The notes: generated from the sequence alone by a model not told the origin. Shown: positions 1-42,720, numbered from the stretch's first letter. The stretch is DNA of 64,000 bases from Candidatus Aceula meridiana (GCA_030765185.1 JAVCDE010000026.1:17276-81275), one strand, 5' to 3'. Numbers and translations: made by a program.

Positions 1-3000
1 GTAGAAAAACAACTTACTCTTTTAGACCAACTCGAAGCGATAAGGCGTCATATCTCAAGAACACTGGGTGAAGAGGTTGCTCTTAATCAGATCTTCAGCC
101 AGGTTGTTATTCCAGACTTATCTGCTAAGGCACGTGAATCTTTAAGAAATGACCCAGAGGGAAGCAGGGTTGAGATAAAAAGTAAAGCATTAGCTGAAAA
201 ATTAAGAAAAGCACTTGAGAAGGGTGAGGCACAAGTAAGCAAATACTTAGAAGGCGCACAGCCAGAGGTAACTGCGGAACATATTCAAATTTTGGAGTCT
301 CAAGGGATAGAAGTTCTTAAGGTTCCTGAAGACAAGATAACAGGAATTGATAAGAGAAAGCCTCTCTACGACAATGATTACTTAGCAACGCTTCTGCTTA
401 ATGTTGGGAAGATAACTGTGAAGAATACAGCGTCTTCCGGAAGTTTAATCAAAAAATCAACAACGCTGCTAACAACAAAGGAATTGAAGCGAATCGATAG
501 AAAGTATAAAGAAATTCTTGCTGTCTATAACGAGAAGGGCGAATTTCATGGCAACAAGAAGAGAGGGGAAATTTATAGCGAGGCAGGTAATTTTGTCAAA
601 ATAGCTGATGTTATTGCGTTCGGATCCAATGGTTTTGTTTTGCAGAGGAGAAGTAAGCCGCAATCTCCCGCAACATTGTCTGTCCACGGAGGGCATGTAG
701 AGCTTGGAGATTGTCCTGTTGAGGCCGCCGTCAGAGAAGTAGAGGAAGAAATCGGCATAGCGATAGACCCTTCTAGGTTGATCCAGGTGGGAGAAGGCGA
801 CTTGATGTTTAAGATGCTTGAAAATGATGCAGTAGAAAATCCTCATATTGATGAACAAGGGCGATATATTTCCAACTCGGGAGTGAAGGGAAGAATTGTT
901 AATCGATTTATGGCCGTTTATGTTTTATTTATGACGCGAGAAGAAATAGAGAAAGCAAAGCAATATGTCGCAAGTAGAAAGGCTAAAAATCTCAGCGATG
1001 TCGATGTCCGCAACGAAGTCAGTGAGATCGTTGAGAAGAATATAGAGGAGCTCATTGAGGATGTAGCGATTTCTCCAGCGGAGTATGCTACAGGTATTCG
1101 GTATTATTTAACGTGGCAGAGATCGTTAAGTCTTATTCAGAAAATCATTAAAGGCACGGAAACAGCAAGATTAATTAAAAAAGATATAAATTGTGATATT
1201 GCAAGACAAGCTGGAGAAGCGGAAGAGGCGTCCTCAAATATTTTATGTATATGCAATTCTAATTTTAATCGTAGTCCAGCGATAGAGCTAGTATTTGATT
1301 ATTTAATTAAAACAGCAGGCATGATTGACAAGCTGTTAGTTGATTCAGGGGCAGTAGAGCAGGAAAGCAAATTTGGCTGGGGAGGTGTTAACGAAACACT
1401 TGCTGATGCTTTTAGAGCGCAATTTAATGTTGAACCAAAGAGGATACTATCAGAACCGCTATCTTTAGAACAGATAAGAGAAGCCCATATTATTGTTATA
1501 GCAACAAATAAAATTAGACAGAAAGTACAGGGTAGATTTGCTGGTGAGTTAGGGAAGAAGAAGATATTTGTTATGGAAGAGCTAGAACAGCAGATGGACA
1601 TTGTTGAATTCAGAAATAGTCCAAACGATGATGCGTCAATTTTATTTAAATATTGCCAGATTATTGATGCGATGATTTGGCCTTTGATCATTCAGTCGCA
1701 GCAGAAACCAGGGGTATTGTCAAATGAAGATCTTGCGATAAAGGTTAAGCGCGATCGTTTATTATTGTATTTGAAGAAAACACCGTTAAAGGAGGAATTA
1801 GCTGTTTCTGAATTATCAAAAAGATTTGATATTCATGAAAATGTGATAAGAGCAATGATTCGCGAGAATTTTAAGTATCCAGAGAGCTCAGACTCTTATT
1901 TGGATGTACTGACTGAGGGTGGCAAATCAACAGATAAGGTTAAATTATTTACTGCTATCCATAGGGATGGGGATTGGCATTTAGGGATACAGGTTATACT
2001 GATAACTTCTGAAGGAGAATTCGTATTATTCAAACGCCCTAGCGGGAAATTTGGGTTTATTGGTGGACATGTTGATGTTGGAGAGGAATCAAAAGTAGCA
2101 GGAATACGAGAAACGATAGAAGAAACTTCGCTTACGGTTGTTGATCAAAAAAGGATCATTCGTGTTGGAAGATTTAAAAAGGAAGGAATTCTTGGTATCG
2201 CGGGAATTAAGCTTAATGATTTCTCAGAATTTCCAACAGTTAATATTTCGCTTAAGGGTACGGAAAAGAATGTCGATCTTGAGGATATTTATGTTTATAT
2301 GCTGAACAGAAAAGAATATAGACAATTGCAGAAGATGGCTGATGAACAAGATGCTTTGAAAGTTAGTGAAGGGGAGCTTTCTGGATTAACAACCGAGTCT
2401 TTTGAAGAAATAAGCGATGGGCTGCAGCATAGAGCTGAAAGATATTCTATTGGCAGTCAGATGGTTTTTAAGGTTGCTTCTATAAAGAAAGGTTTAAAAG
2501 ATATAGCAGGGGCACTTGTTCAGAAGGAAATTATTAATAAAGATAGAAAATCAAACGAAGATTTCTCATCGTCAATTAATAATTTAGAGAAAAATTCCGT
2601 AGGATATACAAGATTAATGCAGAAGTTCTGGTCTTTGTTTACTAATAGCATTAAGGACGGGATTTCTAAGGAAGATCTAGCCTTCTTTAAAACAAGACGT
2701 AATCTAGAAACAGGTAAGTTGATTAATATATATTGTGCTTCTTATTCTTTTTGGATTGATGCAAAAACAGAAATTGGTATTAAATTATCAGATTTCCAGA
2801 AAAAGATGATGAAGGTGCTTCCAGCTGATTTGCAAAATAAGATAGTCTTATTTAAAAATTTTCATATAACGATTGCGGTGCCACTACGCGACATAGATAG
2901 TCCTTATTCAGAAGAAACAATTAATTTTATTGCTAATGATTTAGATGGGATTGCCTCAGAAGTAAAGAGTACTGAGTTTGACATCGTAGGATTAAATGCA

Positions 3001-6000
3001 TTTCCGGGAGGCATCTTATTTGCTCAAGCTTATCCTGTTTATGATAATAATGGAGAATTTGAATTGGATAAATTCGAAGAGGCAGTGAACCAGAGAAGCC
3101 CGCATGCTTTGCATTACGAGTCAAATGTCTTTCACATAACGCTTGGTTTCTTAAAAGATAAATTAACACCCAAGCAATCAGCAGAATTTGTTGATTCTTT
3201 AGCTAAATTGCGCACTTCTCCGATAGGTAAATTAAGAGTAACCGAAATGCAGCTTGATTATTACAACAATTTACTTATTCCGGAAAAAATATTAAAGAAA
3301 TATTCGTTATCGTCATCAGGTATTAGAGAAAACAGCAAAAACTTCAAACCGTTTGAGAAAATCACGGAAGACGCAGTAACGATTGATGTCCTTTATCAAA
3401 GACCGGGTCAAAACTTTCAGCAAGTGCCCCAGGTAAAAATACCTTCTTATAAGGATACTAAGAATGGGAAATTATCGTCAGCTACTGAAGCTCTAGGCAG
3501 AGAAGGATATTCAAGAGATGAAGAATTCTTAACACAGAAAAGCAAGAACGCGGAGTCGACAGAGGAAAGATCCAGGCAAGAGCCGTTGTCTTCATCTCGA
3601 GGCAATTCACCGGTTGAGTCTGCGCCGAATATGCCTATCTCAACACCGGTTAAAATCAATGCGCCTATAACGCCGATACTGCTTATGCCATCTGTGGTAT
3701 CTAGCGCAGCATTCTTGTTGAGCCGAAACGCAAAGAACGGTAAAGCAGATATGCCGATAGGCATTTTAGGAAATGGTCTTGCCGAATGGTTCGCTGAAAA
3801 TAATAACAGTGCACCAAACGTAATCAGAAATAAAAATATTGATAAAAACGAGCCGTTGTCAGTTGCTTTTTCCTCCCGTGGCGGGATATTAAGCAGATTT
3901 AAAAAGACAGCGGCTCTTCTATTTATACGGGCGGCTCTTCTTTCTATAGAAAAGCTAGCACAAAAGCCGTTGTCAGTTGCTTTTTCCTCCCGTGGCGGGA
4001 TATTAAGCAGCTTTAAAAAGACAACGGCTTTTTTATTTATAAGGGCGACTCTTCTTTTCATAGAAAAGTTAGCACAAAAGCCGCTGTCAAGACAGCTCTC
4101 CTCCCGTGGCGGGAACGAGCTTGAGGCAGCGGCATCTTCTATTGTTCAAAAAACAATCATTGTTGCCTCAATCATCCTTTCTTTAATCTTCTTGACCCCG
4201 ACTGCAACGCCAGCACAGGCACAAACAGAAAGCTATTCTATCGAAAACGTTGACTATTTAACTGAAGCAGATGAACAAAAACTTTCTGTGGCTATTAGCG
4301 AAATAGGGTATCCGCAAGATTTTCAAGAATTTTATGCTGCTGGCTTTGAGCAAGTTCTTGCCGATATCGATGCTTATGAATTAGGTCGTAGATGGCAAGA
4401 GTCTGATATCGATGGCTATAAAGATATTATGAAAGATTTCCGAAAGCGCATGCGCAAGAATGATTACTTCCAAAGAACCTATCCTTTAAGCAATAAGCCT
4501 CGCAATCCGTTTGTACAAAAATGGGCAAATGCTTTGCGTCTAGAGGAAGGACATATCTTTGATGTTGTCAAAGCCACTGAACTCGGGCGTGTAGACCAGA
4601 CTGAACAATTTAAAGATTATCGACTTCATAGATGGCAGAATCATGTTCTCTATTTTATGTTGAAAGTGTGGGGCATCGACTTTGATGTCGTAGCAACAGA
4701 GAAATATTATGTTTACCTTATTGAGCGAGATCGAACAAAAGATACTCTTGCCCCAGAGCTAACGCATCTTTATCTTGATGGCTACGAGGGGGTTTTAGGC
4801 GCAGTGAACCTAGAAGACGAAGTCTATACTCTTAAGGGGCAGCAATGGATAAGCGATATTACTGTTTCAAAAAAGACCTTTTGCGAGAATACAGCCATGC
4901 TTGCTACGCCACCACTTAGAGGTTTCTTTTTTACTCCATATTATTTTCATTATGGCCAGAACGAATCTGACTTCTTAAAAGCAGACATGTATTTCGGTTA
5001 TGCGTTTGCTTATCTTAATGCTGAGAAATATAGTAAAGGAATTGAATATCTTACTCGAGGACTTAGACTAAATCCGTTTGTCAAAGATCGGTGGATTGAG
5101 CTTGCACGTATTTATCGATATTTAGCATGGCTAAAGACGAGAGGAAAATATCAAACTCAAGAGTCCTCAGAGTCTTTATATAAAAAAGCTGCTGCAGCTT
5201 ATAACGAAGCCATTGAGCTTGATCCATATGACTTAACAAAAGTTTTTGAATTAGCAGAAGACGTTTATTTAGAAATAGGGGAGATTGAAAAAGCAGAAGA
5301 ATGTTTTGCTAAAGCGATCATGCTCGATATGCGCGTTAAATATCGGATGGAGCGGTTAGTTAAAAAAGCGGAGAAAGATCAAAAGAAAAAAGACCAAAAG
5401 GTGAATAATAAGGCTTCATCGAATAATGAAACAAAGTTAAATCTACTTCAAGCTTTCATTAATAGCGAGGATGTTTCAAAGTTCCTCCCTCTCAAGCTTC
5501 GAAACATTGAACAAAGAAGTAACAGCGGCATCATCTCCAGCGCCTGTGAATCGCTTTCTTTGGCAATTTCAAAAGAAAAAAATAAATCTTCATCGAATTC
5601 AATTTTAAAAACTGATGTTATAATAAATTTAAACACGTCAAGCTGGGGAGATTTACCAGACCGTCTTACCTCGTCCGTGGCTGGTGGGGGGCGGTTTACC
5701 CCGGCTTGGCGTGTTTCTTCTTCAGCGGCCTCAAGTGCGCAAAACGCTAGAAAATTCAACAAAGAACTTGAGATTTTTTGGGATATTTATCAAGCACTTA
5801 TTAGAGCTGCACTAAAAACGAATAATCATATTTTGACCCGCCAAGAGATACGAGGATTTATTAACCATTATATCCTTGTTATCGATAAGGACAGAGACCT
5901 TGCTTCTGAATTTCTAAAAATTTTAGATATTATGGATTTTCGCCCGCCTCAGCTGTGGGATGCCTATCCGCCGGCTTGCCCTAAGGTTGAAAAACGTTTT

Positions 6001-21000: not shown

Positions 21001-24000
21001 CCTGGCTATCATTATTTTATGTTACCATACAACTCTAATTATAAAATCATCATCCGAAAAGATGGAAAAGTTTTGCGAACCATCAAGGAAGATGGTGCTC
21101 CGATAGTGATTCTTGACTTCTTTACGTCTCTTGACTCCATGAGAACTCACGCCTTTAGGCCAGTTGCCTCTTCCTCGTCTGCCAGCAAAACTATTTTACC
21201 AGCTAACAAGGGCGGATTAGAGTTGCTACGCAAGATGATACTCGATGTTTTGAACGAAAAAGGTCAGGTCAGATTGGCAATCGATGGTGGAGTCGCAGTT
21301 GGTAAGAAGTTTTTGGTCGCAGCCATTCTAGAGGGAAAATTAGGCTTGACTCGTGATGAAATTTGTATTGCTCTCTTTAATAAGTATGCTTTCAAAAGAC
21401 TAAAGGATGGTAGAGATCTCTCTAGCAAGAAATTGTTAATATTCCCTGGACACTTCTCTAGCCGTTTGTCCGATGTTGATATTAAGGTCCATTTGGTTAC
21501 TGACGGTACCACGCAGCGGTCTGATATAGTACTTAGAGGTCAGGACCTTAGCGATTACCCAGAGCTTATGAATTTTCATTCATTAGTTTTAAATGAGCTA
21601 GAAAAGAAAGAATTTGACCTAACAATCGATAATAGCCAACGGTATCGGATGCCTTTTAAGCAGATGGTAGAGCTGTTTAGCGAGCCGCGCACAAATGGAG
21701 CCTTAGGCGAATATCCTTCGAAATCTTGCCGAAGAGCGGATAAAAATCTTATCACAAAGGGAAGTGCTTCCTCGGCACAGCCCAAAACGCCTAAAAATGT
21801 GGTGGTTACTAAGCGTGAAAAGGATGACTTGAGAGATATGAAGCTCTTTAAAAGATTTTATGACGGGGATGATGATGCCTTAGGCGAGTTCTTTGAAATT
21901 CGTAGACCTTATTTTATGGGATTTTTGATAAAATGCAAACCTGGGGCTATTTCCCGCGATGACGCTGAAGATATTTACCACGATGTTTTTATCAAGGTGT
22001 TTGATAGAGAACGTACACCTTTTAAGGGAGAAGACAAGCCGAGGATTTGGATAAGAACCATTTTACGAAATGCACTTTTTGATCGCATGAAACAAAAAAA
22101 GAGCAAGAGAACAGTTCCCCTTGACCTCAAAACGTTAGAGAATTTTCTCACCCTGTCAGGTGTATTTACACCGGAAGATTGGAAGAGTAGAGAAAAAATG
22201 CGTTTGTTGATACAGAGGAGGATTAGTCAACTACCAGCGACGTATAAAAATTATTTTCTTGCCCACCATTACGATGGTTTTAAGTATAGGGAAATTGCAA
22301 AGAAGGAAGGTGTTGCGGAAGGCACCGCTAAGAGTACTGTCCATAAGGCACTTTTTTACATGATAAAGGTGTTGGCGCCGGATATAAGAGAAGATCCGAA
22401 ATTGTTGGAGTATTGCCGGGAGCACTTGAAGGATTCTCTCAAAAAGGTTCTTGGAGCAGTTGTAGTTGCGGTTTTAAGTGGCGGACTATTGGCATATGGT
22501 ATGTGTAATAATGCCGGAATGACAGAAGGGGTTGTATGCGCTTTTATCCTGCCGTTTTTCACCTACGCAAGTTATTCTAAGTTGTTAAAGACAATACATG
22601 CGTTATTCGAGGATATAAAAAGGTGCATTTCTTCATTCTTTGTTTCCTTGACCAAGGCGGCAACTTTTATTTTACACATAAGTATTTCTGGCATACGTCT
22701 TGTGTCGGGGGGTTTAAACTTTGGCACGCATTTTGCGTCGGGGGTTTTAAGACCGCTAGCTCAAAAGTATATTTCTTTACGAAAAAAATTCCGATCAAAA
22801 GATAAGCAGGCTAATCAGAGCGGTTGGGGCACAATAGCTGCGAAGGCGTCTTATTTGAAGAAACCATATCAAAATAAATCGCTAGGGAAAAGGGATGATG
22901 CGCCTAACAGTTCTTACTGGAAGAATGGTAGGCGCTATGTAAAAGAAAGAGGTTCTTGGTTTTTTAGCTTTAGCCCGGTGTTATTTTTCTTCAAAGGAGA
23001 AATTTATGCTCTGCTACAGGCCTTAGAGATTCCTTGGCAAGAGATAGGGATGACGGGATTAGTTGTCTTAGGGGTAGTGGTGATAAAGTTTTTTGCTGCA
23101 GAGAAAGGTGTTCGCATTGACACAAAAGAAAACAATAAAAATAAAAATTCTTTAGATATCACGCCGTTATCCAAAAGAAGAAATTTTTTAAAGACTGCGA
23201 CAAATGTTTTTTCTATTTTATTAGTTATCGGACTAGTGTTTTTGATACCGCTTGATGCTGTCTATGCGCAGGGTGTAGCTGACCCTGTTGAGAAGACTTT
23301 TGACCAAGAAAAAGAAATCTTTTATAAAAATTTAAAGCAATCTGCCTTGCCTTTTATCCAGCCGTTTGTTGCAACACAAGAGGACGCCAATAGGTTTGCT
23401 AATGACTTTATCTATGAGGTAGCGGGATGGAAAAGAAGCGACGGGGAACCCATTCTTTACGTCTGGAGCCAGCGGCTTAAGAATGCGCGAAGAGGGGGTC
23501 ATAATAAAGAAGTGGCTCTAGATGAGGTGATCGCCCTTGAGCTTGAAGCCATAAAAGAAATCCGCACCATTATTCACAATCGTTTTTCTCTTCATGACAA
23601 CAGTCAGGATGCGTTTCTTATTCATGAGATTTTATCGACAAATCAGGCCTGTTCTTTAGGCAGGGCACAGATTCTTTTTATCGCGCTTAATGCATTGGAA
23701 ATTCAAACATTAGGGGTCACCATGGAGGATCTTGAGGCAAACTCCCAAGGAGAGCGTGGAACATCTATTGTTGTCTCAGCTCGTTTGGCAGATTCTCGCC
23801 AAGTTTTGATAAACGTTACACTTGATTCGCCGAATTTTTTAAGCGCTGCATGTGCTTTAAGTGAGATATTTATTGCCCATGATTGCGCTGTTGAATTTAA
23901 TCCTCAGTACGCCGGAAGTCAATTTTACAGAAATATTCATATTCTTGGTATGAGAGGGCTTATCTCCGCAGCTCATACAGATTTGGCCGTAAAATATAAT

Positions 24001-24531
24001 AGAAATTGTTCTTATGCGGCCGCACTTTATCATGCTAGAGAGGCTGTTGATTTGGACTGTTGTAATGAACGGGCTTCTTTGGTTTTGGGAAATATTTATT
24101 TTAACCAAGGAGAATATGATGAGGCGATTCGTTATTTTCGTAAAACTCTTTATATCCAAGATAGCAGGGAAGGCTATTTTAATTTGGGAGCAGCTTATCA
24201 AAAAACAGGTCGCCTTAAACTAGCTAAAACTTTTTTTGGCAAAGCGATACGTGAGGATCCACTTTTTTCATTGGCGTATGCTTACCGCGGCCATATTTTT
24301 TATCAACTTGGAAAATATAAAAAGGCACAAAAGTTTTATCGCCGAGCCCTTAAGATAGAGCCTCAAAGCGTTGATGCTGCTTATGGGCGGATACTATGCC
24401 TGATGAAATCTAATCAGATTGAGCAGGCAAGACAAGAATTCCTTAAAATGCTTGAGCTTCGCTCTCTTAAAGAGTCTGTAGATGAGGAGCAGATAATCAA
24501 GCTTGCTAAAGAGCTTGGTGTAGAGATTTAA
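1..24531 (+). CDS. giant multidomain membrane-associated protein; 5' end lies upstream of the window (>=8,176 codons in window)
   Basis: Frame 1 is open from nt 1. I translated nt 1-300 by hand and found no stop; the ORF track starts at a TTG at 292 only by convention. There is no TAA/TAG/TGA for ~24.5 kb of AT-rich DNA, which is essentially impossible without selection. The stop TAA is at 24529-24531. Multiple recognisable domains are listed as separate features below. Confidence 0.85.
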   Translation, partial: VEKQLTLLDQLEAIRRHISRTLGEEVALNQIFSQVVIPDLSAKARESLRNDPEGSRVEIKSKALAEKLRKALEKGEAQVSKYLEGAQPEVTAEHIQILESQGIEVLKVPEDKITGIDKRKPLYDNDYLATLLLNVGKITVKNTASSGSLIKKSTTLLTTKELKRIDRKYKEILAVYNEKGEFHGNKKRGEIYSEAGNFVKIADVIAFGSNGFVLQRRSKPQSPATLSVHGGHVELGDCPVEAAVREVEEEIGIAIDPSRLIQVGEGDLMFKMLENDAVENPHIDEQGRYISNSGVKGRIVNRFMAVYVLFMTREEIEKAKQYVASRKAKNLSDVDVRNEVSEIVEKNIEELIEDVAISPAEYATGIRYYLTWQRSLSLIQKIIKGTETARLIKKDINCDIARQAGEAEEASSNILCICNSNFNRSPAIELVFDYLIKTAGMIDKLLVDSGAVEQESKFGWGGVNETLADAFRAQFNVEPKRILSEPLSLEQIREAHIIVIATNKIRQKVQGRFAGELGKKKIFVMEELEQQMDIVEFRNSPNDDASILFKYCQIIDAMIWPLIIQSQQKPGVLSNEDLAIKVKRDRLLLYLKKTPLKEELAVSELSKRFDIHENVIRAMIRENFKYPESSDSYLDVLTEGGKSTDKVKLFTAIHRDGDWHLGIQVILITSEGEFVLFKRPSGKFGFIGGHVDVGEESKVAGIRETIEETSLTVVDQKRIIRVGRFKKEGILGIAGIKLNDFSEFPTVNISLKGTEKNVDLEDIYVYMLNRKEYRQLQKMADEQDALKVSEGELSGLTTESFEEISDGLQHRAERYSIGSQMVFKVASIKKGLKDIAGALVQKEIINKDRKSNEDFSSSINNLEKNSVGYTRLMQKFWSLFTNSIKDGISKEDLAFFKTRRNLETGKLINIYCASYSFWIDAKTEIGIKLSDFQKKMMKVLPADLQNKIVLFKNFHITIAVPLRDIDSPYSEETINFIANDLDGIASEVKSTEFDIVGLNAFPGGILFAQAYPVYDNNGEFELDKFEEAVNQRSPHALHYESNVFHITLGFLKDKLTPKQSAEFVDSLAKLRTSPIGKLRVTEMQLDYYNNLLIPEKILKKYSLSSSGIRENSKNFKPFEKITEDAVTIDVLYQRPGQNFQQVPQVKIPSYKDTKNGKLSSATEALGREGYSRDEEFLTQKSKNAESTEERSRQEPLSSSRGNSPVESAPNMPISTPVKINAPITPILLMPSVVSSAAFLLSRNAKNGKADMPIGILGNGLAEWFAENNNSAPNVIRNKNIDKNEPLSVAFSSRGGILSRFKKTAALLFIRAALLSIEKLAQKPLSVAFSSRGGILSSFKKTTAFLFIRATLLFIEKLAQKPLSRQLSSRGGNELEAAASSIVQKTIIVASIILSLIFLTPTATPAQAQTESYSIENVDYLTEADEQKLSVAISEIGYPQDFQEFYAAGFEQVLADIDAYELGRRWQESDIDGYKDIMKDFRKRMRKNDYFQRTYPLSNKPRNPFVQKWANALRLEEGHIFDVVKATELGRVDQTEQFKDYRLHRWQNHVLYFMLKVWGIDFDVVATEKYYVYLIERDRTKDTLAPELTHLYLDGYEGVLGAVNLEDEVYTLKGQQWISDITVSKKTFCENTAMLATPPLRGFFFTPYYFHYGQNESDFLKADMYFGYAFAYLNAEKYSKGIEYLTRGLRLNPFVKDRWIELARIYRYLAWLKTRGKYQTQESSESLYKKAAAAYNEAIELDPYDLTKVFELAEDVYLEIGEIEKAEECFAKAIMLDMRVKYRMERLVKKAEKDQKKKDQKVNNKASSNNETKLNLLQAFINSEDVSKFLPLKLRNIEQRSNSGIISSACESLSLAISKEKNKSSSNSILKTDVIINLNTSSWGDLPDRLTSSVAGGGRFTPAWRVSSSAASSAQNARKFNKELEIFWDIYQALIRAALKTNNHILTRQEIRGFINHYILVIDKDRDLASEFLKILDIMDFRPPQLWDAYPPACPKVEKRFYESLIIRNPAPFVEKGKLDFSAVLDLPEGRKISQDEYHFLSKLRGERNSLLVDPIFIVARIERQWALYNLQGMICKEVFKENQKTGTFKILRNSRFLNVFDTCYFKNQNSHLNFEALPNLFSSGQEVHQEIFLSMRKHHQKELSFTELLSNYFLKPFILSQIYLFRNIFDIPIKPKKKMEKALKEIKASSNAKNNKIFSPKDIIQAIKETEEVLREISRFKAVRISEPRAFGLLGAKLKSAGLQTALTLQILTTYREDIENSKRTPTQSFFKRIQSLKFRAQHELQWREGKIDDAFESLLSALALAVEVETQEVVDEMFQELLNKIIVEGKGQSEELMRRRTQIFYDAIIAGEDKDFNEKVLLRALTDLRKIIYTAAISQSQSAINRVIRFGLVLFIAQKEINLFEKSVVDSNNIEIQKDVAGAYENSARALIELDADIKDLQKAEQYIQKAVKLQPEEDAYKCYLNNVYLKQTIHYINEGELIKAEKAFEKAVADDLIDALERQDLETIGIDLYLGVIYLLQGKSIAEIDGTFAEAFEATDVSILLSYSERLESREKFLTYLSEAIQRDLSVEAKTAMAEFLKKTSYSIGGAIMAFRKKIKNLFAKGKYEEAKEHLTVYFSLVSQDAALKDLGIKIDKIITILARAKISEGSENVSKVLAEYEKVLAINPADENLVEKIAQIKKKEIERIAQIKEQEEKDQREAKKINTIGMHLRNAGNQIAAKKFDRAQKNLEKAREVIDSLEEPQESLSLLWKKISDDLTRNRKAPKTVEKEVVGETGKRKKPSLIVAPSNEETKTNKEETTHQKINVYAIGAVRTLLKGKEEQEQKRIWQAVYFERDLKPVEGASFSLYTVRFGSVRILIIPREVNKKRKSWIIAAVVNRAILNNTAKYGKIISNIGKRWDVYQKDARLIKPKKDWGSSSASIVQDKIIWIATYQQMASSLGSAQIKDQVQDIDFSSNFLNADCLLCQSLDKQGAVFFAVCDKRIIGYVILKETGFIPRIAVHEDFHRQHVGAQLFESCKKRALEQGIRSLFLDFYNLNNACGKRRKAFFESLGMSISSLSKKQYLFRAKYELKISSGARLINPKKAWVSSAAKARSLPLGRKSSSSIYLINLLGVSHDTLANTENFWNKIVTLLKEDGVAPEKISILNNLYEHIKGFYQADDIISHGYHCLLHSLEVAVDGYIAGKNKGYTKEERLELLVSGILHDLDPRNGVFRIPRVVNTVAFLESDKIIQGYIEDLELSFEKVIINILRTHYPWKEGAPLKFIQRLNKSIKGDEKRSRQKEIAETLALIDKVAVYARLNPLVAEYRVRQLAKETKCNADELVKNTLLFLEKEMKDFDAMLGNFLPSEFTKNFGKTKAHFEKRREELSSSTIRPSKSFSVPKANFKRVVKKAQTVSSTIKVKVDEQVSKRAETLHLEKTLHEAIKHIEDSTGTIIQLGWKHLNLGLSKKIIKMVSMRQLLYNQYNFLHFVLPDDSICLIEMVNVHADWWDHQWRKSLKCSIERALKPFIEDQKGKDQKGKERPVDILEEFVKQNLENMSLVNLKNSRRPFVVVNFPVDSIVSLKKLLAKDGVRFQDAEDDDQFDVCSKERPHCRVGIDRGKKTVIFSPSFFKGKSAPFDVWFTTNLINEFLEKKKAVEKKEKSFPGKGKASSTAFRAEKTESKDRINLEDVVLKDYLKNHSKTELKKVLQEINYEAYMDWELLITDWIEEEDAAVDYGEGSIVFARKNGKEVGYFLRRGNKFSFMAVRENERGNRIGPDMFIYALNKAKADGFSIVTFDVEYTNEEQLRSLDRLKKEKKISFQKQYFSRVFIYTARLVSSSAKSKKGKVSSIKACASSLILTEQDLRLSRQHGLGIRYVSPVGGEIVEENKRVVNILNREYPNYLDEKINFIVLTEQRAKKFSLDSKEIRVAFSGHPSHGRQLFYPLRNKIDDIYLYLGAKGCGDLVSKCLTHSISRYRNNGLAYLDDFQNAQVFTDILRMKGARVPLHVAACKLDYILDQDGNVIEISDDMRASTADHQVGFQRKPSLHFILYDYYDRLGYLTYAVKKDPGLLKIRKQLGNLSQEQYFLHIIKELAYTEAKKVELGVTKVSFHENDITLSGMEVDWDEASYVKDIAFGDPYSRLTKNMEEKKFYRKYGFLLFDYRRKLEILQRFQISLTEHALFKISNINVQQEFYRTFLDSLSLDMRRRVIAATSSNIKIKTATSDDIPFILSQFRKRIKSWSQVKMNYKKDNSKNFFSSPLALSNIRSVFYSVKEIFGEKMPCKEQNRPMLPFDSKSLPILFSVSPIVLVPLILVSGVSVAVMAKSALSIAIIFGILGFIVLLREWFAQMRAAPNSKEILYVMVLNEPLMHKSPSRGGEISSAAHLFARAFSAASSAVSAPRASSTAKLKKKKNTFDYHCFFDVLGMPKYFQENPESYNIINYMNYTIQALRTPENFKGKVARILSLLNRTSEESLGYLESVAKDIYAPLANRVGFLEIAEQIKDSIFKARFPDLWLKSERQILQALGGISREEANRYLLEVSNKIKSRLKELGVEVEAVYLRVKGASSGYEKVKNKRGDKTSYNKIARLQDLFGLHIILKNNDDYWKVAGLLLGWDSTMAPYQDLGGELDVQQTEEKRRFKGDKYDAYHFGIKIPVSPKAKEKRKFVMMEIKLFDPDKYLYFRYSQEIAAWIYELTRRYPNQEFLSGGLTLMSSDPEKNFKNLYFYFKNWIYFFFVQDNNLDDCCILKPAGLKKGVIMADVLGLLGVDEFLALTQSEPVLREGMNQKDHALLSGFSFGQMIRKNQDPDVKKFNKTVIQELRVGDFLQVDPMRRAEFTDQEKKKISEKARHLRTLLRLQLKPGDFYNMSFPSNERQKKATLGIIKLTKAGEDRVVYKFLFRDEIAQAVGFNDGIYMCAVFGLCEVSITTEVAKQAIEGKPWLMSRVVTIKAKGGQAKKTFVELTLSLDYDYSELMKAVVSVVAQVGAEIFDSQYFGKKVKMTISILEENILKLKDLLGKIKALDKEAKIMDENFLKKEIHILANLNKDYQSFSVTLNSILSVFETLKIYVYENVSSWQPKDERLTPKKETPFLVPLRRLRKLDDKVVLYEFVIGIPATSEEKILIEKLQQVTNGGVVEIVEASSAISSLAFFDFIPQDEDAETKNARPIIIMEDDDKETTRVMLNIWFFDRENFDAMMETFKGTMKAKKSGVINISLDQELSRLHKMQRNIQRLERIKKTMDPNAGSLEFFDSTVGLGQIRINRLRGGASYEITIRKDDKLGYVLVCKEQEGAEEVIIVGLKSTLSPGMTTLPLLGRGKTFGEAAKNAHSVLTADQELDREMYDVMMHIWFKARKRFGRMLKIFKVKIRTNGAGEITLSIGGHRIAIGKLKKNTFYTVTLRRDAHFGYILVLRTKTGETAIVKLNVSLTKNTYLSSLGRGKTLGKAMERVQQKYPKSAHSLSKGKLRKVEIRDLVKFVQAGFEPGEELSCAYEYERVLSCGFLMDTYRVKEGKLASRLKETIVAEAPPGIQKALDAFEAVYGKEVSSVPFTHEGQDYIFINSLCDLSFTQLCEAIIYDTCTLAGMYHSGASLKSQNLMYGHKNEDEKNRVYLKAMYSVLTNYQEKADVIVDDFYVEAETDSLGIIEVFTQGTTLQICAPKRDTVYEITLRDDKRLGYVLILKAKDGAQEFVIVGMRRNLNKISTTFPILGQEPTLEEALENADLTIIEEQEERGEIRTMLNTWFFFDREKFDAMMETFKGTIKAKRSGCIDINVDRKLSMLSKAMWNAWRLNGIREKIDSAAQRIEFLDSTIRLGNIRINGLKGGASYEITIRKDRRLGYVLVFTEQDEAPEVIVIGMKEVISTKKTTLPILGRGKSFDDAIATAQPVLTAGQELDWEMYEVMLNIWFKARKRFGRMLKIFKVKIRTNGAGEITSSIGGHQIAIGKLGKNTFYTVTLRQDAHLGYILVLKSERGETVIAKLNESLTENTSLSLGGRGKSYSEALDNALAKGIIEGVVKTIMNEGRIKQHLKAYGEKGSLSQKDYLELIQEVKGMNFSAILLLNSIFLGNLSDEVQERVIIRKLFRYRAEKHGLFEAYMRNAIAISESFYKKTMQRFSEDIPEDRNKFLIVEEDLGSFVFDWLQIAKRLRGISEEERALLIKSIQSIDAEFFDVEEFLSNGVDKRTLILFGEALQEEGSEDYPLVTSSAVTGRKNISSSAKSKEEKASSTAEGLPNLTKGQFRKFAQRFIRSQPWDTRSKYKSSLFEYGDLSDFENLVETDYLKHPAETNLSGKYFCFEDYKIFSLGQSQIGFLRNATNFLIFMPEFTGCKCLSLHCLDKKPSIYATHLGSTFDWKRFFEYFVNLSTDQKENMKCWSLFWEHPFSEKSMEYLIRINKELPQQIFDIKKKYKHSSLFFSRQFSFLIHFDYIAMLSNRRVEKVLALPSQRSFRPDLLQNFFSLIQQRYPLIPSRREVVDGIKGIAPTVFQKQVISSAVTSSAVATMVADVSAAIAPIASMWAPIIVFSSIGGLLRFAIAKHIDKYFKGIFPYGTLGVNLLGSLMMGFIVGGVEVIGDIPAWLIGGFLGAFTTFSTFIFDIETLRKSGKYRSLAGYTLLSILGGYFVFIFGYFAGSFGLNTNMKIIFVSLIIIPLFAFLAFKNSENKIPSLRKIPSFVSGRETLYLSIGVTLGVVSRMLFPGQTLFVNILGSFLIGAADFGLGDASKKRKLLLITGFCGTLTTFSGFILKTHGYLAAITPFEAAAYILASVGLGYLFLKIGEKFSAFLLGNKKDTGYKGQNRKKKEEVSSATQPHGALGEHSSKPWRRMDKNLTAKESSSSTQPKTSKNVAETKKEYKFFSRFKNGKVIEIEDYYGAPAEEAQAIDLRKAVEDANLSYANADDPDDLSTDDYFKDINLQAAEDIQWLIFGGAFNGCLKDVMERILHCDEVFSDESTLRITLPLFAIKKLYSLQVSKYTYDVRNYLNPERIPERIAEYSKEGLGVLTTGQEDVISPGYHYFMLPYNSNYKIIIRKDGKVLRTIKEDGAPIVILDFFTSLDSMRTHAFRPVASSSSASKTILPANKGGLELLRKMILDVLNEKGQVRLAIDGGVAVGKKFLVAAILEGKLGLTRDEICIALFNKYAFKRLKDGRDLSSKKLLIFPGHFSSRLSDVDIKVHLVTDGTTQRSDIVLRGQDLSDYPELMNFHSLVLNELEKKEFDLTIDNSQRYRMPFKQMVELFSEPRTNGALGEYPSKSCRRADKNLITKGSASSAQPKTPKNVVVTKREKDDLRDMKLFKRFYDGDDDALGEFFEIRRPYFMGFLIKCKPGAISRDDAEDIYHDVFIKVFDRERTPFKGEDKPRIWIRTILRNALFDRMKQKKSKRTVPLDLKTLENFLTLSGVFTPEDWKSREKMRLLIQRRISQLPATYKNYFLAHHYDGFKYREIAKKEGVAEGTAKSTVHKALFYMIKVLAPDIREDPKLLEYCREHLKDSLKKVLGAVVVAVLSGGLLAYGMCNNAGMTEGVVCAFILPFFTYASYSKLLKTIHALFEDIKRCISSFFVSLTKAATFILHISISGIRLVSGGLNFGTHFASGVLRPLAQKYISLRKKFRSKDKQANQSGWGTIAAKASYLKKPYQNKSLGKRDDAPNSSYWKNGRRYVKERGSWFFSFSPVLFFFKGEIYALLQALEIPWQEIGMTGLVVLGVVVIKFFAAEKGVRIDTKENNKNKNSLDITPLSKRRNFLKTATNVFSILLVIGLVFLIPLDAVYAQGVADPVEKTFDQEKEIFYKNLKQSALPFIQPFVATQEDANRFANDFIYEVAGWKRSDGEPILYVWSQRLKNARRGGHNKEVALDEVIALELEAIKEIRTIIHNRFSLHDNSQDAFLIHEILSTNQACSLGRAQILFIALNALEIQTLGVTMEDLEANSQGERGTSIVVSARLADSRQVLINVTLDSPNFLSAACALSEIFIAHDCAVEFNPQYAGSQFYRNIHILGMRGLISAAHTDLAVKYNRNCSYAAALYHAREAVDLDCCNERASLVLGNIYFNQGEYDEAIRYFRKTLYIQDSREGYFNLGAAYQKTGRLKLAKTFFGKAIREDPLFSLAYAYRGHIFYQLGKYKKAQKFYRRALKIEPQSVDAAYGRILCLMKSNQIEQARQEFLKMLELRSLKESVDEEQIIKLAKELGVEI
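590..975 (+). other. domain within giant ORF: Nudix hydrolase fold (Nudix box 1)
   Basis: GGHVELGDCPVEAAVREVEEEIGI at nt ~688-755 matches the Nudix box G-x5-E-x7-REUxEExGU (compare MutT GGKIEMGETPEQAVVRELQEEVGI), with D substituted for the first E. Domain boundaries are approximate. Confidence 0.65.
1234..1640 (+). other. domain within giant ORF: low-molecular-weight phosphotyrosine phosphatase / ArsC-like fold (C-X5-R P-loop)
   Basis: ILCICNSNFNRSPAIELVF...SGAV...EPLSLEQIREAHIIVIAT aligns with the LMW-PTP N-terminus (e.g. YwlE IIFVCTGNTCRSPMAEALF...SAGV...SPLTEELMESADLVLAMT). The C-N-S-N-F-N-R-S-P stretch matches the C-x5-R(S/T) P-loop with the conserved Asn. Confidence 0.5.
1970..2330 (+). 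other. domain within giant ORF: second Nudix hydrolase fold (Nudix box 2)
   Basis: GGHVDVGEESKVAGIRETIEETSL at nt ~2062-2130. The G-x5-E-x7-R-E-U-x-E-E motif is present; the terminal G is replaced by S. Confidence 0.55.
2780..3250 (+). other. domain within giant ORF: possible 2H phosphoesterase (LigT / cyclic nucleotide phosphodiesterase-like) fold
   Basis: Two H-x-T-x motifs, FHITIAVPL (nt ~2861) and FHITLGFL (nt ~3131), lie ~90 aa apart. This is the hallmark arrangement of the 2H phosphoesterase superfamily. The assignment rests on this motif pair only. Confidence 0.35.
3849..4125 (+). repeat. in-frame tandem repeat (~120-nt / 40-aa unit, 2.3 copies) inside giant ORF
   Basis: EPLSVAFSSRGGILSRFKKTAALLFIRAALLSIEKLAQK / PLSVAFSSRGGILSSFKKTTAFLFIRATLLFIEKLAQK / PLSRQLSSRGGNE. 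A 44-nt block (ccgttgtcagttgctttttcctcccgtggcgggatattaagcag) is identical in copies 1 and 2. The SRGG motif recurs at nt ~13089. Confidence 0.8.
4948..5330 (+). other. domain within giant ORF: TPR-like helical repeats
   Basis: AYLNAEKYSKGIEYLTRGLRLNP...AYNEAIELDP...AEECFAKAIMLD shows the TPR-like 34-aa periodicity (W/LG/Y...A...F...A...P). Confidence 0.45.
8830..9190 (+). other. domain within giant ORF: GNAT-like N-acetyltransferase fold (tentative)
   Basis: RIIGYVILKETGFIPRIAVHEDFHRQHVGAQLFESCKKRALEQGIRSLFLD...KRRKAFFESLG resembles GNAT motif A/B (V.E.R..G.G..L...A...G...L.L...N..A...YEK.GF). The match is imperfect. Confidence 0.4.
9480..9930 (+). other. domain within giant ORF: HD-domain phosphohydrolase-like
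   Basis: HGYHCLLHSLEVAV...(~25 aa)...GILHDLDPRNG gives the H...H...HD...D metal-binding pattern of the HD superfamily. Confidence 0.45.
11110..11375 (+). other. domain within giant ORF: second GNAT-like segment (weak)
   Basis: GYFLRRGNKFSFMAVRENERGNRIGPDMFIYALNKAKADGFSIVTFDV resembles the GNAT core (V.E..RG.GIG..L...A...G). The motif is degenerate. Confidence 0.3.
13222..14000 (+). other. domain within giant ORF: RelA/SpoT-homolog (p)ppGpp-synthetase-like nucleotidyltransferase domain
   Basis: YAPLANRVGFLEIAEQIKDSIFKARFPDLW aligns with RelA LAHRLGIHHIKTELEELGFEALYP. VYLRVKGASSGYEKVKNKRGDKTSYNKIARLQDLFGLHIIL aligns with GRPKHIYSIWRKMQKK...DVRAVRIV. DDYWKVAGLLLGW aligns with DCYAALGIVHTHY. 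YDAYHFGIKIP...FVMMEIKLFD aligns with YQSIHTVV...VEVQIRT. A possible ACT-like segment follows at ~14830-15060 (FVELTLSLDYDYSELMKAVVSVVAQVGAEIF...MTISILE). Confidence 0.6.
15506..18010 (+). repeat. in-frame tandem duplication (~1.67-kb unit, 2 copies) containing five copies of a ~95-aa module of unknown function
   Basis: RVMLNIWFFDRENFDAMMETFKGT (nt 15511) and RTMLNTWFFFDREKFDAMMETFKGT (nt 17176). An 84-nt block encoding WFKARKRFGRMLKIFKVKIRTNGAGEIT is 100% identical at 16018-16101 and 17689-17772. The module consensus is x-Y-E-I-T-[IL]-R-x-D-x-x-LGY[IV]L[IV]...LP[IL]LG[RQ]GK[ST]...EA...A, with copies at ~15770, 16140, 16950, 17440 and 17810. Confidence 0.8.
19519..20300 (+). other. domain within giant ORF: fused tandem pair of CrcB/Fluc fluoride-channel domains (integral membrane)
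   Basis: Copy 1 is SIGGLLRFAI...FPYGTLGVNLLGSLMMG...LIGGFLGAFTTFSTFIFD, compared with E. coli CrcB GGGTGSVARW...IPLGTLAANLIGAFIIG...ITTGFCGGLTTFSTFSAE. Copy 2 is FPGQTLFVNILGSFLIG...ITGFCGTLTTFSGF. Both carry the GTLxVN and TTFS(T/G)F signatures. Confidence 0.8.
21850..22390 (+). other. domain within giant ORF: ECF-type sigma-70 factor (regions 2 and 4)
   Basis: Region 2 is DDALGEFFEIRRPYFMGFLIKCKPG...AEDIYHDVFIKVFD...WIRTILRNALFDRMKQ, matching ECF AEDLVQETFLKAW...WLyrIarN. Region 4 is LPATYKNYFLAHHYDGFKYREIAKKEGVAEGTAKSTVHKALFYMIKVL, matching LP...R.VF.L...EGLSY.EIA..LG.S.GTVKSRL.RAR..L. A predicted TM helix follows at ~22440-22560. Confidence 0.75.
24005..24465 (+). other. domain within giant ORF: C-terminal TPR repeats
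   Basis: ASLVLGNIYFNQGEYDEAIRYFRKTL...GYFNLGAAYQKTGRLKLAKTFFGKAIREDP...LAYAYRGHIFYQLGKYKKAQKFYRRALKIEP are canonical 34-aa TPR units (LG..Y...G.Y.EA...F..AL...P). Confidence 0.7.
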
Positions 24532-24860
24532 AAGAGAGCGCACCAACCCTTAGTTAACCCTTTCGGCTTAAGATAACAAAAAAAACGCCAATAACTCGTG
24601 CCCACACCAGCAATGGCTAGTTTGGATTTCTAAGTTATGTCGCAGGTTTCATAGCTTAAACTTTCATTAAAAGGTAGCGCTTTCCCGAAAGCACCCTTAT
24701 CCCCTTACATTCCCCCTATATATGTTCTATACTTATTGTAGATTCTTTTAATTGTAGGATGGTTCTTTGACGATCAGAAAAAGGCAAACTACCCGTAAGG
24801 GTAGGGCGCAAAGTTATAGGGTCCTTTATAGGATAGCCAACTATCAGAAAAATATACACC

Positions 24861-38453: not shown

Positions 38454-39119
38454 ATGAATATTTCCGTTATTATTCCAGTTTGCGAGTTCCAATCTGACCT
38501 ACAAAAAGCACACGAAGTTCTTATCCGTGTATTGAGAAATTTATCTTTGGAGTTTGAGGTCTTGATATGCGACGACACAGCCTCTTCTCAGTCTCATGTC
38601 GTATGCAAATTAATTAAAGATAGAGGTGCTCATACTAAGATTTTTTTGCATGAAAAAAGACTAGGATTAGGGCAAAGCCTTAGAGAGCTTTTTACCGAAG
38701 CTAAGGGAGATATTGTTTTGTATCTGAACCCTCGCGCTCTTTTTGATTATCAGGCTTTAGCAGTTTTTCTGAACAGTGTGCGACAATGTGACGTGATTGT
38801 TTCTTCTCATTACAAGGCAAAGGAGGGAGAGAAGTTGTCCCTTGCGCTGGGAGAAAGACTTTATTCTTTTTTCTGCCGATTTTTGTTAAGAATACCTATA
38901 TGTGAGATTATTCCTAGCCTAATGCTGGTGCGTCGTAAAGTATTTGCGGTTTTGCCTTTAAAGGCGTCCGGAGAAGATTTTTTAACGGAGTTTCTTGCTC
39001 GTGCGCATGGCCAAGGATTCTTGGTTAGAGAGGTGAATTTTGGTTTTCCCCCTAAAAGACGTAATGGTTTTTTCCGTTTTTTTTCTGCTTTAAATTTTCG
39101 AAAACAAATGTCTTCTTAA
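38454..39119 (+). CDS. family 2 glycosyltransferase (DPM1/GtrB-like, soluble)
   Basis: ISVIIPVCEF...EVLICDDTAS places the GT2 N-terminal Rossmann region upstream of the metal-binding DxD motif. The gene lies 12 nt after the PilZ gene and is probably co-transcribed. Confidence 0.6.
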   Translation: MNISVIIPVCEFQSDLQKAHEVLIRVLRNLSLEFEVLICDDTASSQSHVVCKLIKDRGAHTKIFLHEKRLGLGQSLRELFTEAKGDIVLYLNPRALFDYQALAVFLNSVRQCDVIVSSHYKAKEGEKLSLALGERLYSFFCRFLLRIPICEIIPSLMLVRRKVFAVLPLKASGEDFLTEFLARAHGQGFLVREVNFGFPPKRRNGFFRFFSALNFRKQMSS

Positions 39120-39152: not shown

Positions 39153-39239
39153 TGGTGCTGGAGGAGGGAGTCGAACCCTCATGCCCGCGAAGACACTGGT
39201 TTTTGAGACCAGCGCGTATACCAGTTCCGCCACTCCAGC
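39153..39239 (-). tRNA. tRNA-Leu (anticodon CAA), class II with long variable arm, CCA encoded
   Basis: The reverse complement reads GCTGGAGTGGCGGAACTGGTATACGCGCTGGTCTCAAAAACCAGTGTCTTCGCGGGCATGAGGGTTCGACTCCCTCCTCCAGCACCA. It folds with an acceptor stem, D-arm, anticodon stem CTGGT/ACCAG with loop CTCAAAA, a long variable arm and the T-arm GGTTCGACTCC. Confidence 0.9.
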
Positions 39240-39295: not shown

Positions 39296-39371
39296 TGGTG
39301 GAGCTGGAGGGATTCGAACCCTCGACCCCTTGCATGCCATGCAAGTACTCTCCCAGCTGAGCTACAGCCCC
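39296..39371 (-). tRNA. tRNA-Ala (anticodon GGC), G3:U70 identity pair present, CCA encoded
   Basis: The reverse complement reads GGGGCTGTAGCTCAGCTGGGAGAGTACTTGCATGGCATGCAAGGGGTCGAGGGTTCGAATCCCTCCAGCTCCACCA. The anticodon loop is AUGGCAU and G3 pairs with U70. Confidence 0.9.
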
Positions 39372-40634: not shown

Positions 40635-40638
40635 AAAT

Positions 40639-42608: not shown

Positions 42609-42720
42609 ATATTTTCTGTTTGCCATTTTGGGATTCTTATTTTGAGTCCCGATTCAGGGGCGAGGGAAGGATTGGGGGCCCTCGATCGGCTTGAGGTCAT
42701 TTTTTAGGATAAGATTATAA

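Follow-up and report, generated by a model that had tools for sequence, protein, structure and literature searches.

Giant open reading frames (ORFs) of over 20 kb occur in most classes of the Omnitrophota (Seymour et al. 2023, PMC10066038). Giants termed 'Archaeovorins' were described as containing NUDIX hydrolases, transferases, hydrolases and peptidases, with many transmembrane (TM) helices and with type II secretion genes nearby; in that study, which covered 46 giants, cleavage was proposed, but information on cleavage points was said not to exist (West-Roberts et al. 2023, bioRxiv 10.1101/2023.11.21.568195). A catalogue of 916 long proteins recognized a 'multi-enzyme metabolic cluster' class, which includes GNAT, HD, NUDIX and TPR domains and spans 552 Pfam families over 779 long proteins, and treated long proteins as membrane-anchored single chains with about one TM segment per 370-450 amino acids (aa) (Nielsen & Lui 2026, bioRxiv 10.64898/2026.06.07.730766). 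Size thresholds in these studies were at least 10 thousand aa (kaa) (Nielsen & Lui 2026) and more than 30 kaa (West-Roberts et al. 2023), and the published Omnitrophota giants carry a C39 or S8 peptidase at the N-terminus. Whether the giant products function uncut, as single chains, or in pieces is a recognized puzzle. The present analysis concerns a stretch of 64,000 nucleotides (nt) from Candidatus Aceula meridiana (GCA_030765185.1 JAVCDE010000026.1:17276-81275), hereafter the window, which opens within a giant ORF whose domain blocks are separated by a recurrent serine-rich junction motif. The motif is what the analysis adds; giant ORFs of this kind have already been described, and this one is a further member.

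The giant ORF resembles the Omnitrophota giants in its phylum, in its single very long frame joining many enzyme families including NUDIX, GNAT and HD, and in its TPR scaffolding, TM segments, nearby type II secretion/type IV pilus cluster and few close sequence relatives. It differs in that the visible 8,176 aa, the 5' end being cut, lie below both size thresholds, and in that no SecA-DEAD, C39/S8 peptidase, glycosyltransferase or methyltransferase domain is found in those 8,176 aa. The visible 8.2 kaa is small for the multi-enzyme giant class. In addition, this ORF has an ECF sigma factor, a double CrcB channel, a divergent RelA/SpoT-like module and the junction motif. A first-pass annotation of the window had overstated novelty, multi-enzyme, membrane-anchored Omnitrophota ORFs with NUDIX, GNAT, HD and similar domains being already published. 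Its suggestion of a new domain mix may survive: the main texts of West-Roberts et al. 2023 and Nielsen & Lui 2026 mention neither sigma factors, nor CrcB/fluoride channels, nor a RelA/SpoT-like module of this sort, and the particular mix may be unreported. The junction motif does not appear in either paper, a literature search on the motif strings returned nothing relevant, and a literature search found nothing pairing Omnitrophota with 'polyprotein'.

Translation of the window gave the following giant frame.

1..24531, plus strand: giant ORF, 5'-truncated (stop-free frame +1 by translation; 8,176 codons plus TAA)

The frame runs without a stop from nt 1 to the TAA at 24529-24531 and is already open at nt 1, so that the gene is truncated at its 5' end by the window edge and extends upstream, both as the first-pass annotation had stated. 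The second-longest open stretch of the window measures 4.2 kb. G+C content of the window is 39%, and base composition and GC skew are uniform over the giant ORF and its neighbors. The other genes of the window end in TAA (16), TGA (7) and TAG (4), indicating the standard genetic code. Since all three stop codons are in use elsewhere in the window at this G+C content, both a chance origin and a code artefact are excluded for the 24.5-kb stop-free frame, and it is real coding sequence. The giant ORF is a genuine, incomplete giant gene of an Omnitrophota bacterium and belongs to the described multi-enzyme, membrane-anchored class.

Reading of the translation revealed a recurrent motif, [A/V/L/I]-S-S-[S/A]-[A/T], between the domain blocks, usually within a basic, Ala/Pro-rich linker. 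The giant ORF holds 29 strict copies, which merge into 15 junction regions. The junctions, together with a weaker variant, are as follows.

1228..1239, plus strand: A-S-S-N variant directly before the LMW-PTP-like domain
2566..2577, plus strand: junction F-SSSI
3310..3711, plus strand: junction region with four S-S-[SA] motifs, at aa 1104, 1159, 1197 and 1234
5536..5742, plus strand: junction region at aa 1846-1914 with ISSA, KSSSN and VSSSAASSA
8764..8778, plus strand: junction 'ARLIKPKKDWG-SSSA' upstream of GNAT, a paralogue of the junction on the downstream side of that module
9280..9336, plus strand: junction 'ARLINPKKAWV-SSAA...K-SSSS' between the GNAT and HD modules
10123..10218, plus strand: junction region LSSST ... 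VSSTI
10972..10983, plus strand: junction A-SSTA, whose DNA recurs at 18642-18659 (family D20)
11476..11538, plus strand: junction region 'VSSSAKSKKGKVSSIKACASS', of which 40 nt recur at 18614-18653 with 88% identity (family D5)
13111..13191, plus strand: triple junction 'ISSAA...AASSAVSAPRASSTAK' lying upstream of the RelA-like module, with its final two motifs conserved in the related locus L002
15397..15417, plus strand: junction 'A-SSAISS' closing the RelA-like module on its C-terminal side
18586..18660, plus strand: junction region 'TSSAVTGRKNISSSAKSKEEKASSTA'
19444..19470, plus strand: junction 'ISSAVTSSAV' directly before the CrcB module
20383..20484, plus strand: junction region 'VSSATQPHGALGE...KESSSSTQPK', whose DNA recurs at 21695-21802 (family D4, 87% identity)
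21169..21183, plus strand: junction A-SSSSA
21769..21780, plus strand: junction A-SSAQ, 33 aa upstream of the sigma domain

The string SS[SAT] occurs 39 times, compared with 8.2 +/- 3.1 in 2,000 shuffles (maximum 20), and SS[SA][AT] occurs 13 times where 0.68 are expected. Enrichment thus ranges from about 5-fold (SS[SAT]) to 16-fold (the 4-residue form) over shuffles and ordinary Omnitrophota proteins. Using the broader SS[SAP][APTVI], densities were 2.45 per kaa in the giant, 2.03 in L002 and 0.15 in ordinary Omnitrophota ORFs, the last set comprising 64.8 kaa of ORFs from 16 other Omnitrophota loci. The remaining 10.7 kaa of window proteins contain no copy of SS[SA][AT], and the linkers of two ordinary fusions encoded in the window, BioD-BioA and PilM-PilN, carry no such motif. 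None of the 29 copies lies inside an annotated domain, the domains making up 27% of the chain (P ~0.009 over the 15 junction regions). The junction regions divide the chain into modules of 165 to ~1,060 aa, among them GNAT (169 aa), HD (264 aa) and double CrcB (305 aa), sizes that appear to match those of stand-alone proteins. The motif serines are encoded by varied codons from both Ser families and third positions carry little information, indicating that conservation acts on the protein and not on the nucleotides. A junction signal at the nucleotide level was rejected as a candidate on the same codon evidence.

The giant reads as a chain of at least 16 protein-sized, apparently independently folding modules. 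Domains were called by Pfam and NCBIfam hidden Markov model searches of the translation against curated cut-offs, and segments resembling signal peptides were noted from hydropathy and motifs.

604..786, plus strand: NUDIX domain 1, aa 202-262 (Pfam PF00293; complete Nudix box at aa 230-253)
1240..1584, plus strand: LMW-PTP-like domain, aa 414-528 (Pfam LMWPc; C-X5-R-S at aa 418-425)
1999..2139, plus strand: NUDIX domain 2, aa 667-713 (Nudix box at aa 688-711, its last Gly replaced by Ser)
2863..3150, plus strand: 2H-phosphoesterase (LigT-like) core (H-x-T-x motifs at aa 955-960 and 1045-1050; Pfam LigT_PEase)
4141..4224, plus strand: signal-peptide-like hydrophobic segment followed by A-Q-A|Q, aa 1381-1408 (hydropathy 2.16; a putative resemblance)
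4987..5328, plus strand: TPR repeats, aa 1663-1776 (Pfam TPR_2, TPR_1, TPR_14)
8875..9174, plus strand: GNAT acetyltransferase, aa 2959-3058 (Pfam Acetyltransf_10, _1 and _7, 44-48 bits; RimI-like NCBIfam match)
9532..9900, plus strand: HD-like region, aa 3178-3300 (Pfam HD; H...HD at aa 3176-3213)
11134..11382, plus strand: second, weak GNAT-like domain, aa 3712-3794 (Acetyltransf_1, 20.1 bits against a cut-off of 20.7)
13192..15396, plus strand: RelA/SpoT-like module, aa 4398-5132, 736 aa (divergent RSH synthetase region, then C-terminal domains)
15706-15990, 16081-16365, 16888-17172, 17377-17661 and 17752-18036, plus strand: five copies of a ~95-aa all-beta module (region 15706..18036)
19531..20301, plus strand: two CrcB/Fluc domains, aa 6511-6618 and 6681-6767 (Pfam CRCB, TIGR00494, hydropathy)
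21877..22353, plus strand: ECF-type sigma-70 factor, regions 2 and 4, aa 7293-7451 (TIGR02937, Pfam), with TM segments following
23170..23274, plus strand: Tat-signal-like 'SKRRNFLK', hydrophobic region and VYA|Q, aa 7724-7758 (sequence motif only)
24079..24465, plus strand: C-terminal array of TPRs, aa 8027-8155 (82.5 bits for Pfam TPR_1; related families also match)

About ten distinct families tile the chain (NUDIX, LMWPc, LigT, TPR, GNAT, HD, RelA_SpoT, CRCB and Sigma70 r2/r4), and no one of them prevails in number of copies. The putative order of modules is Nudix, LMW-PTP-like, Nudix; 2H phosphoesterase; an exported-looking TPR module; GNAT; HD; a second GNAT; RelA/SpoT-like; five-repeat beta; double CrcB; and ECF sigma with TM segments and TPRs, along with several of unknown function. 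No family at all matched the modules at aa 3404-3658, 3846-4290, 6000-6482 and 6828-7257.

In an exhaustive profile search the RelA-like module proved to be a rare family, whose long members with retrieved source names are all proteins of Omnitrophota metagenome-assembled genomes (MAGs). Many of these long members (P0001, P0018, P0019, P0115, P0135 and P0156) show enrichment of S-S-[S/A/T] or S-S-P; ordinary RelA/SpoT proteins show none. P0019 is a complete gene product of 7,967 aa (MAG GCA_020057345.1) with 21 copies of (A/G)-S-S-(S)-P-(V/I). Its inter-motif segments measure 167-1,083 aa, save for two close motif pairs (10 and 34 aa). All 21 motifs lie outside Pfam domains, and a GH77 domain is placed exactly between two of them. 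The first motif serine of P0019 is encoded by AGY at 13 sites and by TCN at 8, with third codon positions nearly uninformative, and such mixed codons indicate selection on the amino acid and not on a DNA or RNA signal. L002 is a JGI metagenome contig (Ga0307990_1000078) whose locus stays open in a single frame over its entire 22,169 nt, with 25 motif copies.

The RelA-like module aligns end to end with its counterparts in L002 (62% identity) and P0001 (42%), and the flanks are unrelated. Homology between the window and L002 runs from the double junction 'SS(A/P)AVSAxxASSxAK' to '(A/V)SS(A/S)I', starting in the giant ORF at the triple junction 13111..13191; homology to both L002 and P0001 stops at 15397..15417, and in P0001 it is likewise bounded by the motif. 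The codons of the conserved motif serines differ synonymously between the window and L002. In all three giants (window, L002 and P0001) the module has different downstream neighbors. Otherwise the window and L002 share only a TPR-like stretch and a hydrophobic spacer, given below.

3574-3894: hydrophobic spacer element of ~100 aa, aa 1192-1298, conserved in P0001 and L002 and overlapping the junction region 3310..3711

A profile of this conserved spacer had no match among 5.8 billion proteins. Homology searches returned P0001 as the sole match for the C-terminal 5,000 aa and only unrelated TPR proteins for the C-terminal 1,697 aa (CrcB, sigma, TPR), and a GTDB genome scan with the RelA-like module gave no confirmed locus. 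Judging from these searches, the sole substantial relatives of the giant ORF are Omnitrophota MAG proteins. Each protein has its own coherent form of the motif, A-S-S-S-P-V/I in P0019, x-S-S-S-x in L002 and S-S-[SA]-[AT] in this ORF, as would be expected for a shared recognition factor co-evolving with its sites, and such lineage-specific coherence suggests a factor shared across the genome.

The modules behave as cassettes, the same module having different neighbors across giants and homology starting and ending at the motif. The motif is under selection at the amino-acid level and marks module boundaries in several independent Omnitrophota giants. The best overall explanation, with about an even chance of being correct, would be that shuffled cassettes make up a chain like a polyprotein, in which the junctions serve as recognition sites, probably of a cleaving factor. 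Translation would yield a single polypeptide held in the membrane through its TM segments. The junction motifs would be recognized by a genome-wide shared factor, most probably an endoprotease; much as a viral polyprotein is processed, this protease would set free the enzymes, the fluoride channel and the sigma factor, or at least part them from one another. At the signal-peptide-like segments (aa 1381-1408 and 7724-7758), signal peptidase may make further cuts on the outer face. For the shared factor a protease is the simplest candidate, since it is difficult to imagine a sigma-70 factor or a Fluc channel at work within a chain of 8,000+ aa. Processing at the junctions, taken by itself, is a possibility whose chances range from somewhat below even to even. 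More tentatively, with the chances leaning against it, the Ser-Ser-(Ser/Ala/Pro) junction could be the recognition site of a dedicated endoprotease that co-evolves with its lineage, and the Omnitrophota giants would then be true cellular polyproteins with cassettes reshuffled in-frame. A cassette or polyprotein-like organization seems to fit better than an integrated machine; of the 'membrane-embedded mega-protein' that had been proposed, the single ORF joining enzymes, channel, sigma factor and TM segments stands, but a single functional machine is doubtful.

Several points weigh against processing. Cleavage itself is inferred from the sequence pattern. No peptidase family was found in the visible 8,176 aa with Pfam or NCBIfam, and in an HExxH scan of the visible chain the sole occurrence sits within the GNAT domain; the N-terminus lies beyond the window and could still encode a protease. 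A passive hinge would explain much of the motif pattern, since the motif is short and its flanks are enriched in S, A, P and K and depleted in D, Y, L and I, as in a generic flexible linker. There are exceptions to the pattern: three domains occupy the first 855 aa, the junction between Nudix 1 and the LMW-PTP-like domain is only the weaker A-S-S-N, no motif separates the LMW-PTP-like domain from Nudix 2, no strict copy precedes Nudix 2 on the N-terminal side, and a pair of early junctions show weaker forms. The motif is missing from another Omnitrophota giant, P0009, with 4 occurrences where 4.5 are expected. In P0019, 8 of the 21 junctions share TCC AGC TCG CCG, possibly through duplication or gene conversion, and linker DNA is repeated within the giant ORF itself.

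20402-20509 and 21695-21802: D4 linker repeat, 108 nt, 87% identity, bracketing a 1.3-kb two-module segment
11474-11513 and 18614-18653: D5 linker repeat, 40 nt, 88% identity
10965-10982 and 18642-18659: D20 linker repeat, 18 nt, 94% identity

These repeats could be traces of recent duplication or insertion of modules, or of gene conversion from linker to linker, and the uniformity of the junctions may stem partly from duplication or gene conversion and to that extent not from selection. Paralogous 'ARLIxPKKxWxSS[SA]A' linkers also stand on both sides of the GNAT module.

A competing explanation is that the giant remains a single uncleaved, membrane-anchored mega-protein, its Ser-Ser motif merely a favored flexible hinge and its enzymes a tethered array. 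The linker-like flanks and the visible part without a protease agree with it, as does the topology survey that regards such proteins as membrane-anchored single chains (Nielsen & Lui 2026); TM density here, with one hydrophobic hit per ~430 aa and one distinct segment per ~630 aa, is within or near the published range of ~370-450 aa. A generic linker, however, is not expected to hold a fixed, lineage-specific consensus of 4-6 residues over 21-30 junctions per protein, ordinary fusions in the same genome do without the motif, and its density is 13-16 times lower in ordinary Omnitrophota proteins. Moreover, the sigma module starts 33 aa after a junction, and a sigma factor must reach core RNA polymerase. 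An uncleaved chain is considered rather unlikely. Alternatively, the motif could be an assembly scar without a role in the protein, left by in-frame module exchange via similar linkers or by linker duplication or gene conversion. Such a history would account for the D4, D5 and D20 repeats flanking modules, the GNAT module set between paralogous linkers, the one module with different neighbors in three giants, and the nucleotide string common to 8 of 21 P0019 junctions, yet it sits poorly with motif serines drawn from both codon families at barely informative third positions. The motif is also kept between homologues of 42-62% identity while the linker around it has diverged, a persistence that indicates purifying selection on the amino acids, and the conserved core of 9-12 nt is too short for homologous recombination. 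A scar is judged improbable.

Separate translation of the modules by internal initiation, a possibility raised in the first-pass annotation and under which the ORF would be an operon that lost its stops, would agree with module sizes resembling stand-alone proteins; as only ~40% of window genes have a recognizable Shine-Dalgarno sequence, missing ones are weak evidence. Against this, an in-frame Shine-Dalgarno sequence plus start follows 1 of the 29 junctions where 3.4 are expected at random, Met occurs within 30 aa after 11 of 29 (11.0 expected), and without stop codons upstream ribosomes would traverse every module anyway, so that this explanation is very improbable. Scarcely credible is an artefactual frame, whether from chimeric assembly or from a decaying pseudogene array that stayed open by luck. 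The internal repeats D1/D2 (300 nt, 75-87% identity, 1,671 nt apart) could locally mislead short-read assemblers, but chance cannot produce ~15 junctions in one frame and 8,176 codons free of stops at a G+C content of 39%, composition and GC skew are even between ORF and neighbors, the domains look intact by their Pfam and NCBIfam scores, and the same architecture appears in independent assemblies from other samples (L002, P0019).

Viral polyproteins, as in Flaviviridae and Picornavirales, are cleaved chains, and the internal signal segments of flaviviruses are cut by host signal peptidase. The giant resembles them in having one ORF with several protein-sized units of unrelated function, some membrane-embedded, in the short conserved motif at unit boundaries, and in its internal signal-peptide-like segments. 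It differs in being a cellular chromosome gene with putative cleavage and no cis protease found in its visible part, and in being made up of enzymes of housekeeping type, a channel and a sigma factor instead of proteins for replication or the capsid. The motif offers residue-level cleavage candidates, with 29 copies in 15 regions here, 21 in P0019 and 25 in L002. If it is a processing site, giant ORFs could be divided by computation into the products actually made, to the benefit of structure prediction and annotation, and the sharing of one ORF by a sigma factor and a channel would be explained. Polyprotein expression of core cellular functions would then be established in a bacterium, with enzymes, a fluoride channel and even a sigma factor made by cutting one giant precursor. 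If the motif is only a linker, the ORF is an ordinary, rather small member of the described class.

The motif-free giant P0009 (MFA6358535.1) is a multi-enzyme protein of 5,805 aa from an Omnitrophota MAG. Between its enzyme modules lie five ~110-aa spacers with 'ILYHELISHI' (HELISH, an HExxH motif). The spacer has no Pfam match and, by its motif, could be an embedded metalloprotease.

Most of the domains named in the first-pass annotation were recovered by the profile searches: two NUDIX, one GNAT, the double CrcB, the ECF sigma factor and the TPRs were confirmed, and support was weaker for the LMW-PTP, 2H, HD, second GNAT and RelA/SpoT-like domains. NUDIX (PF00293) scored 65.5 bits over two stretches, and NCBIfam added MutT-like matches; both predicted Nudix boxes are present, the second with its Gly to Ser change. 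The predicted C-X5-R loop of the LMW-PTP-like domain exists as the P-loop C-N-S-N-F-N-R-S (aa 418-425), but LMWPc scored 21.3 bits against a cut-off of 23.2, over profile positions 1-110 of 144. Both H-x-T-x motifs of the 2H phosphoesterase were found (HITI at aa 955, HITL at aa 1045), with LigT_PEase marginally above its cut-off (23.5 against 23.3 bits). Of two GNAT-like segments, the first scored above the cut-offs and the second fell just below. For the HD region the H...HD pattern is present and the match spans profile positions 4-113 of 116, but the score of 16.3 bits (E=0.013) is below the cut-off of 22. The five copies of the ~95-aa module were borne out, and no Pfam family matched them.

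The RelA/SpoT-like domain, too, was found in the right place, but it scores below the curated thresholds of both models and several conserved synthetase residues are gone. The Pfam score was 21.7 bits (cut-off 27) and that of TIGR00691 43.5 bits (E=1.4e-11; full-length cut-off 499). Solved Rel structures match the module at E=0.0016, and canonical RSH proteins align to its profile positions 84-213 in the exhaustive profile search. Catalytic motifs of RSH synthetases comprise R-x-K-x3-S-x3-K, a Mg-binding Asp and E-x-Q-x-R-T. The module keeps RVKGASSGYEK (aa 4553-4563), LQDLFGLH and MEIKLF, thereby retaining R-x-K-x3-S-x3-K, the Asp and the Glu, but lacks two residues of EVQIRT, the Gln and the Arg, as well as the AAHWxYK His. 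Loss of these conserved residues makes its activity uncertain, and by its sequence the module may have altered activity or none.

Both CrcB models exceeded their cut-offs, in agreement with the double channel originally proposed (CRCB 116.5 bits over two stretches, cut-off 32.9; TIGR00494 87.6, cut-off 80.45). An extra hydrophobic helix at aa 6629-6647 joins the two domains in a 4+1+4 layout, as estimated by hydropathy only. A further hydrophobic stretch at aa 6489-6508 precedes the pair and could make the helix count even, the topology estimate being uncertain. Eukaryotic FEX is a fused double Fluc/CrcB fluoride channel and is similar in having two CrcB domains in one chain with an extra hydrophobic helix between them; the present pair differs in being bacterial and in lying within a giant ORF between two junction motifs. 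The ECF sigma call was likewise upheld, TIGR02937 scoring 60.4 bits (cut-off 42.9) over nearly its full length (positions 2-158 of 165 at aa 7293-7451), with Sigma70_r4_2 at 43.5 bits and Sigma70_r2 at 23.7, slightly under its cut-off of 24. Some ECF sigma factors carry C-terminal regulatory or transmembrane extensions. As in these, regions 2 and 4 share a motif-bounded module with the TM helices and TPRs that follow; unlike in these, more than 7,200 aa of unrelated protein precede the sigma domain in-frame.

Across the whole giant ORF about 13 distinct TM-like hydrophobic segments (19 overlapping hits) were detected with a Kyte-Doolittle window of 19 residues and a score of at least 1.6, a hydropathy measure and not a dedicated topology predictor; these and the two TPR arrays agree with the TM helices and TPRs first reported. 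The internal segment at aa 1381-1408, which resembles a signal peptide, precedes the TPR-containing module and hints at export of some of the chain. The 'SKRRNFLK' ... 'VYA|QG' segment resembles a textbook twin-arginine (Tat) signal peptide, yet lies ~7,700 aa into the ORF; Tat-signal models did not match it, and the likeness is at the motif level.

Repeats other than those of the linkers likewise occur in the giant ORF.

3851..4078, plus strand: tandem 114-nt (38-aa) repeat with 'PLSVAFSSRGGILS' (family D3, 92% identity)

A third, degenerate copy follows this repeat, a related 'SPSRGGEISSAAHLFARAF' occurs at aa 4362-4380, and similar 'P(L/V)S...(A)GR..L(T)(S/P)AFL' elements are found in P0001. 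Within the five-repeat region, the duplication 15532-16193 / 17203-17864 (300-nt blocks, 75-87% identical, 1,671 nt apart) generated two pairs of repeat modules.

The gene for a U32 family protein near the giant ORF has best GTDB hits of 57-63% identity, 12 of 16 being Candidatus Omnitrophota or Ca. Zapsychrus, and the two genes downstream of the giant ORF have no exact match in a public gene collection. By these matches the host is an Omnitrophota bacterium without a close sequenced relative in the collections searched. The link to Omnitrophota giants drawn in the first-pass annotation is thereby upheld, as it is by the relatives of the RelA-like module. In ten Omnitrophota loci covering up to 10 kb of sequence upstream of the U32 orthologue no giant ORF was found, and the two large ORFs present there (1,910 and 1,943 aa) show no motif enrichment; across these loci there is no synteny between the U32 gene and giant ORFs.

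The rest of the window is ordinary bacterial chromosome, encoding the U32 family protein, ComM, YkuD, AccA, RlmN, BirA, biotin genes, MnmA, PGI, AmiC and MurI. Further features are listed below.

24773-24848, plus strand: c-di-GMP-I riboswitch RF01051 (60.8 bits, full length)
39156-39239 and 39299-39371, minus strand: two tRNA genes, in the gap between the 38454-39119 ORF and birA
39678-45512, plus strand: biotin gene set with BirA, a BioF-like aminotransferase and a BioD-BioA fusion
48848-61017, plus strand: type II secretion/type IV pilus-like cluster with GspE, GspF, GspK, a PilM-PilN fusion and a secretin, ~24 kb downstream of the giant ORF

The riboswitch sits in the 487-nt gap between the stop codon of the giant ORF and the next gene (25018-29163), which encodes 1,381 aa with a hydrophobic, signal-peptide-like N-terminal start and no Pfam match. 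At the P0019 locus, two genes for PilZ, a c-di-GMP receptor, follow the giant gene (L001 24419-25191). 'Deficits in biotin' are listed among the partial cofactor pathways of the Omnitrophota collection of Nielsen & Lui 2026 (bioRxiv 10.64898/2026.06.07.730766), and the present lineage may differ from that collection in its biotin pathway.

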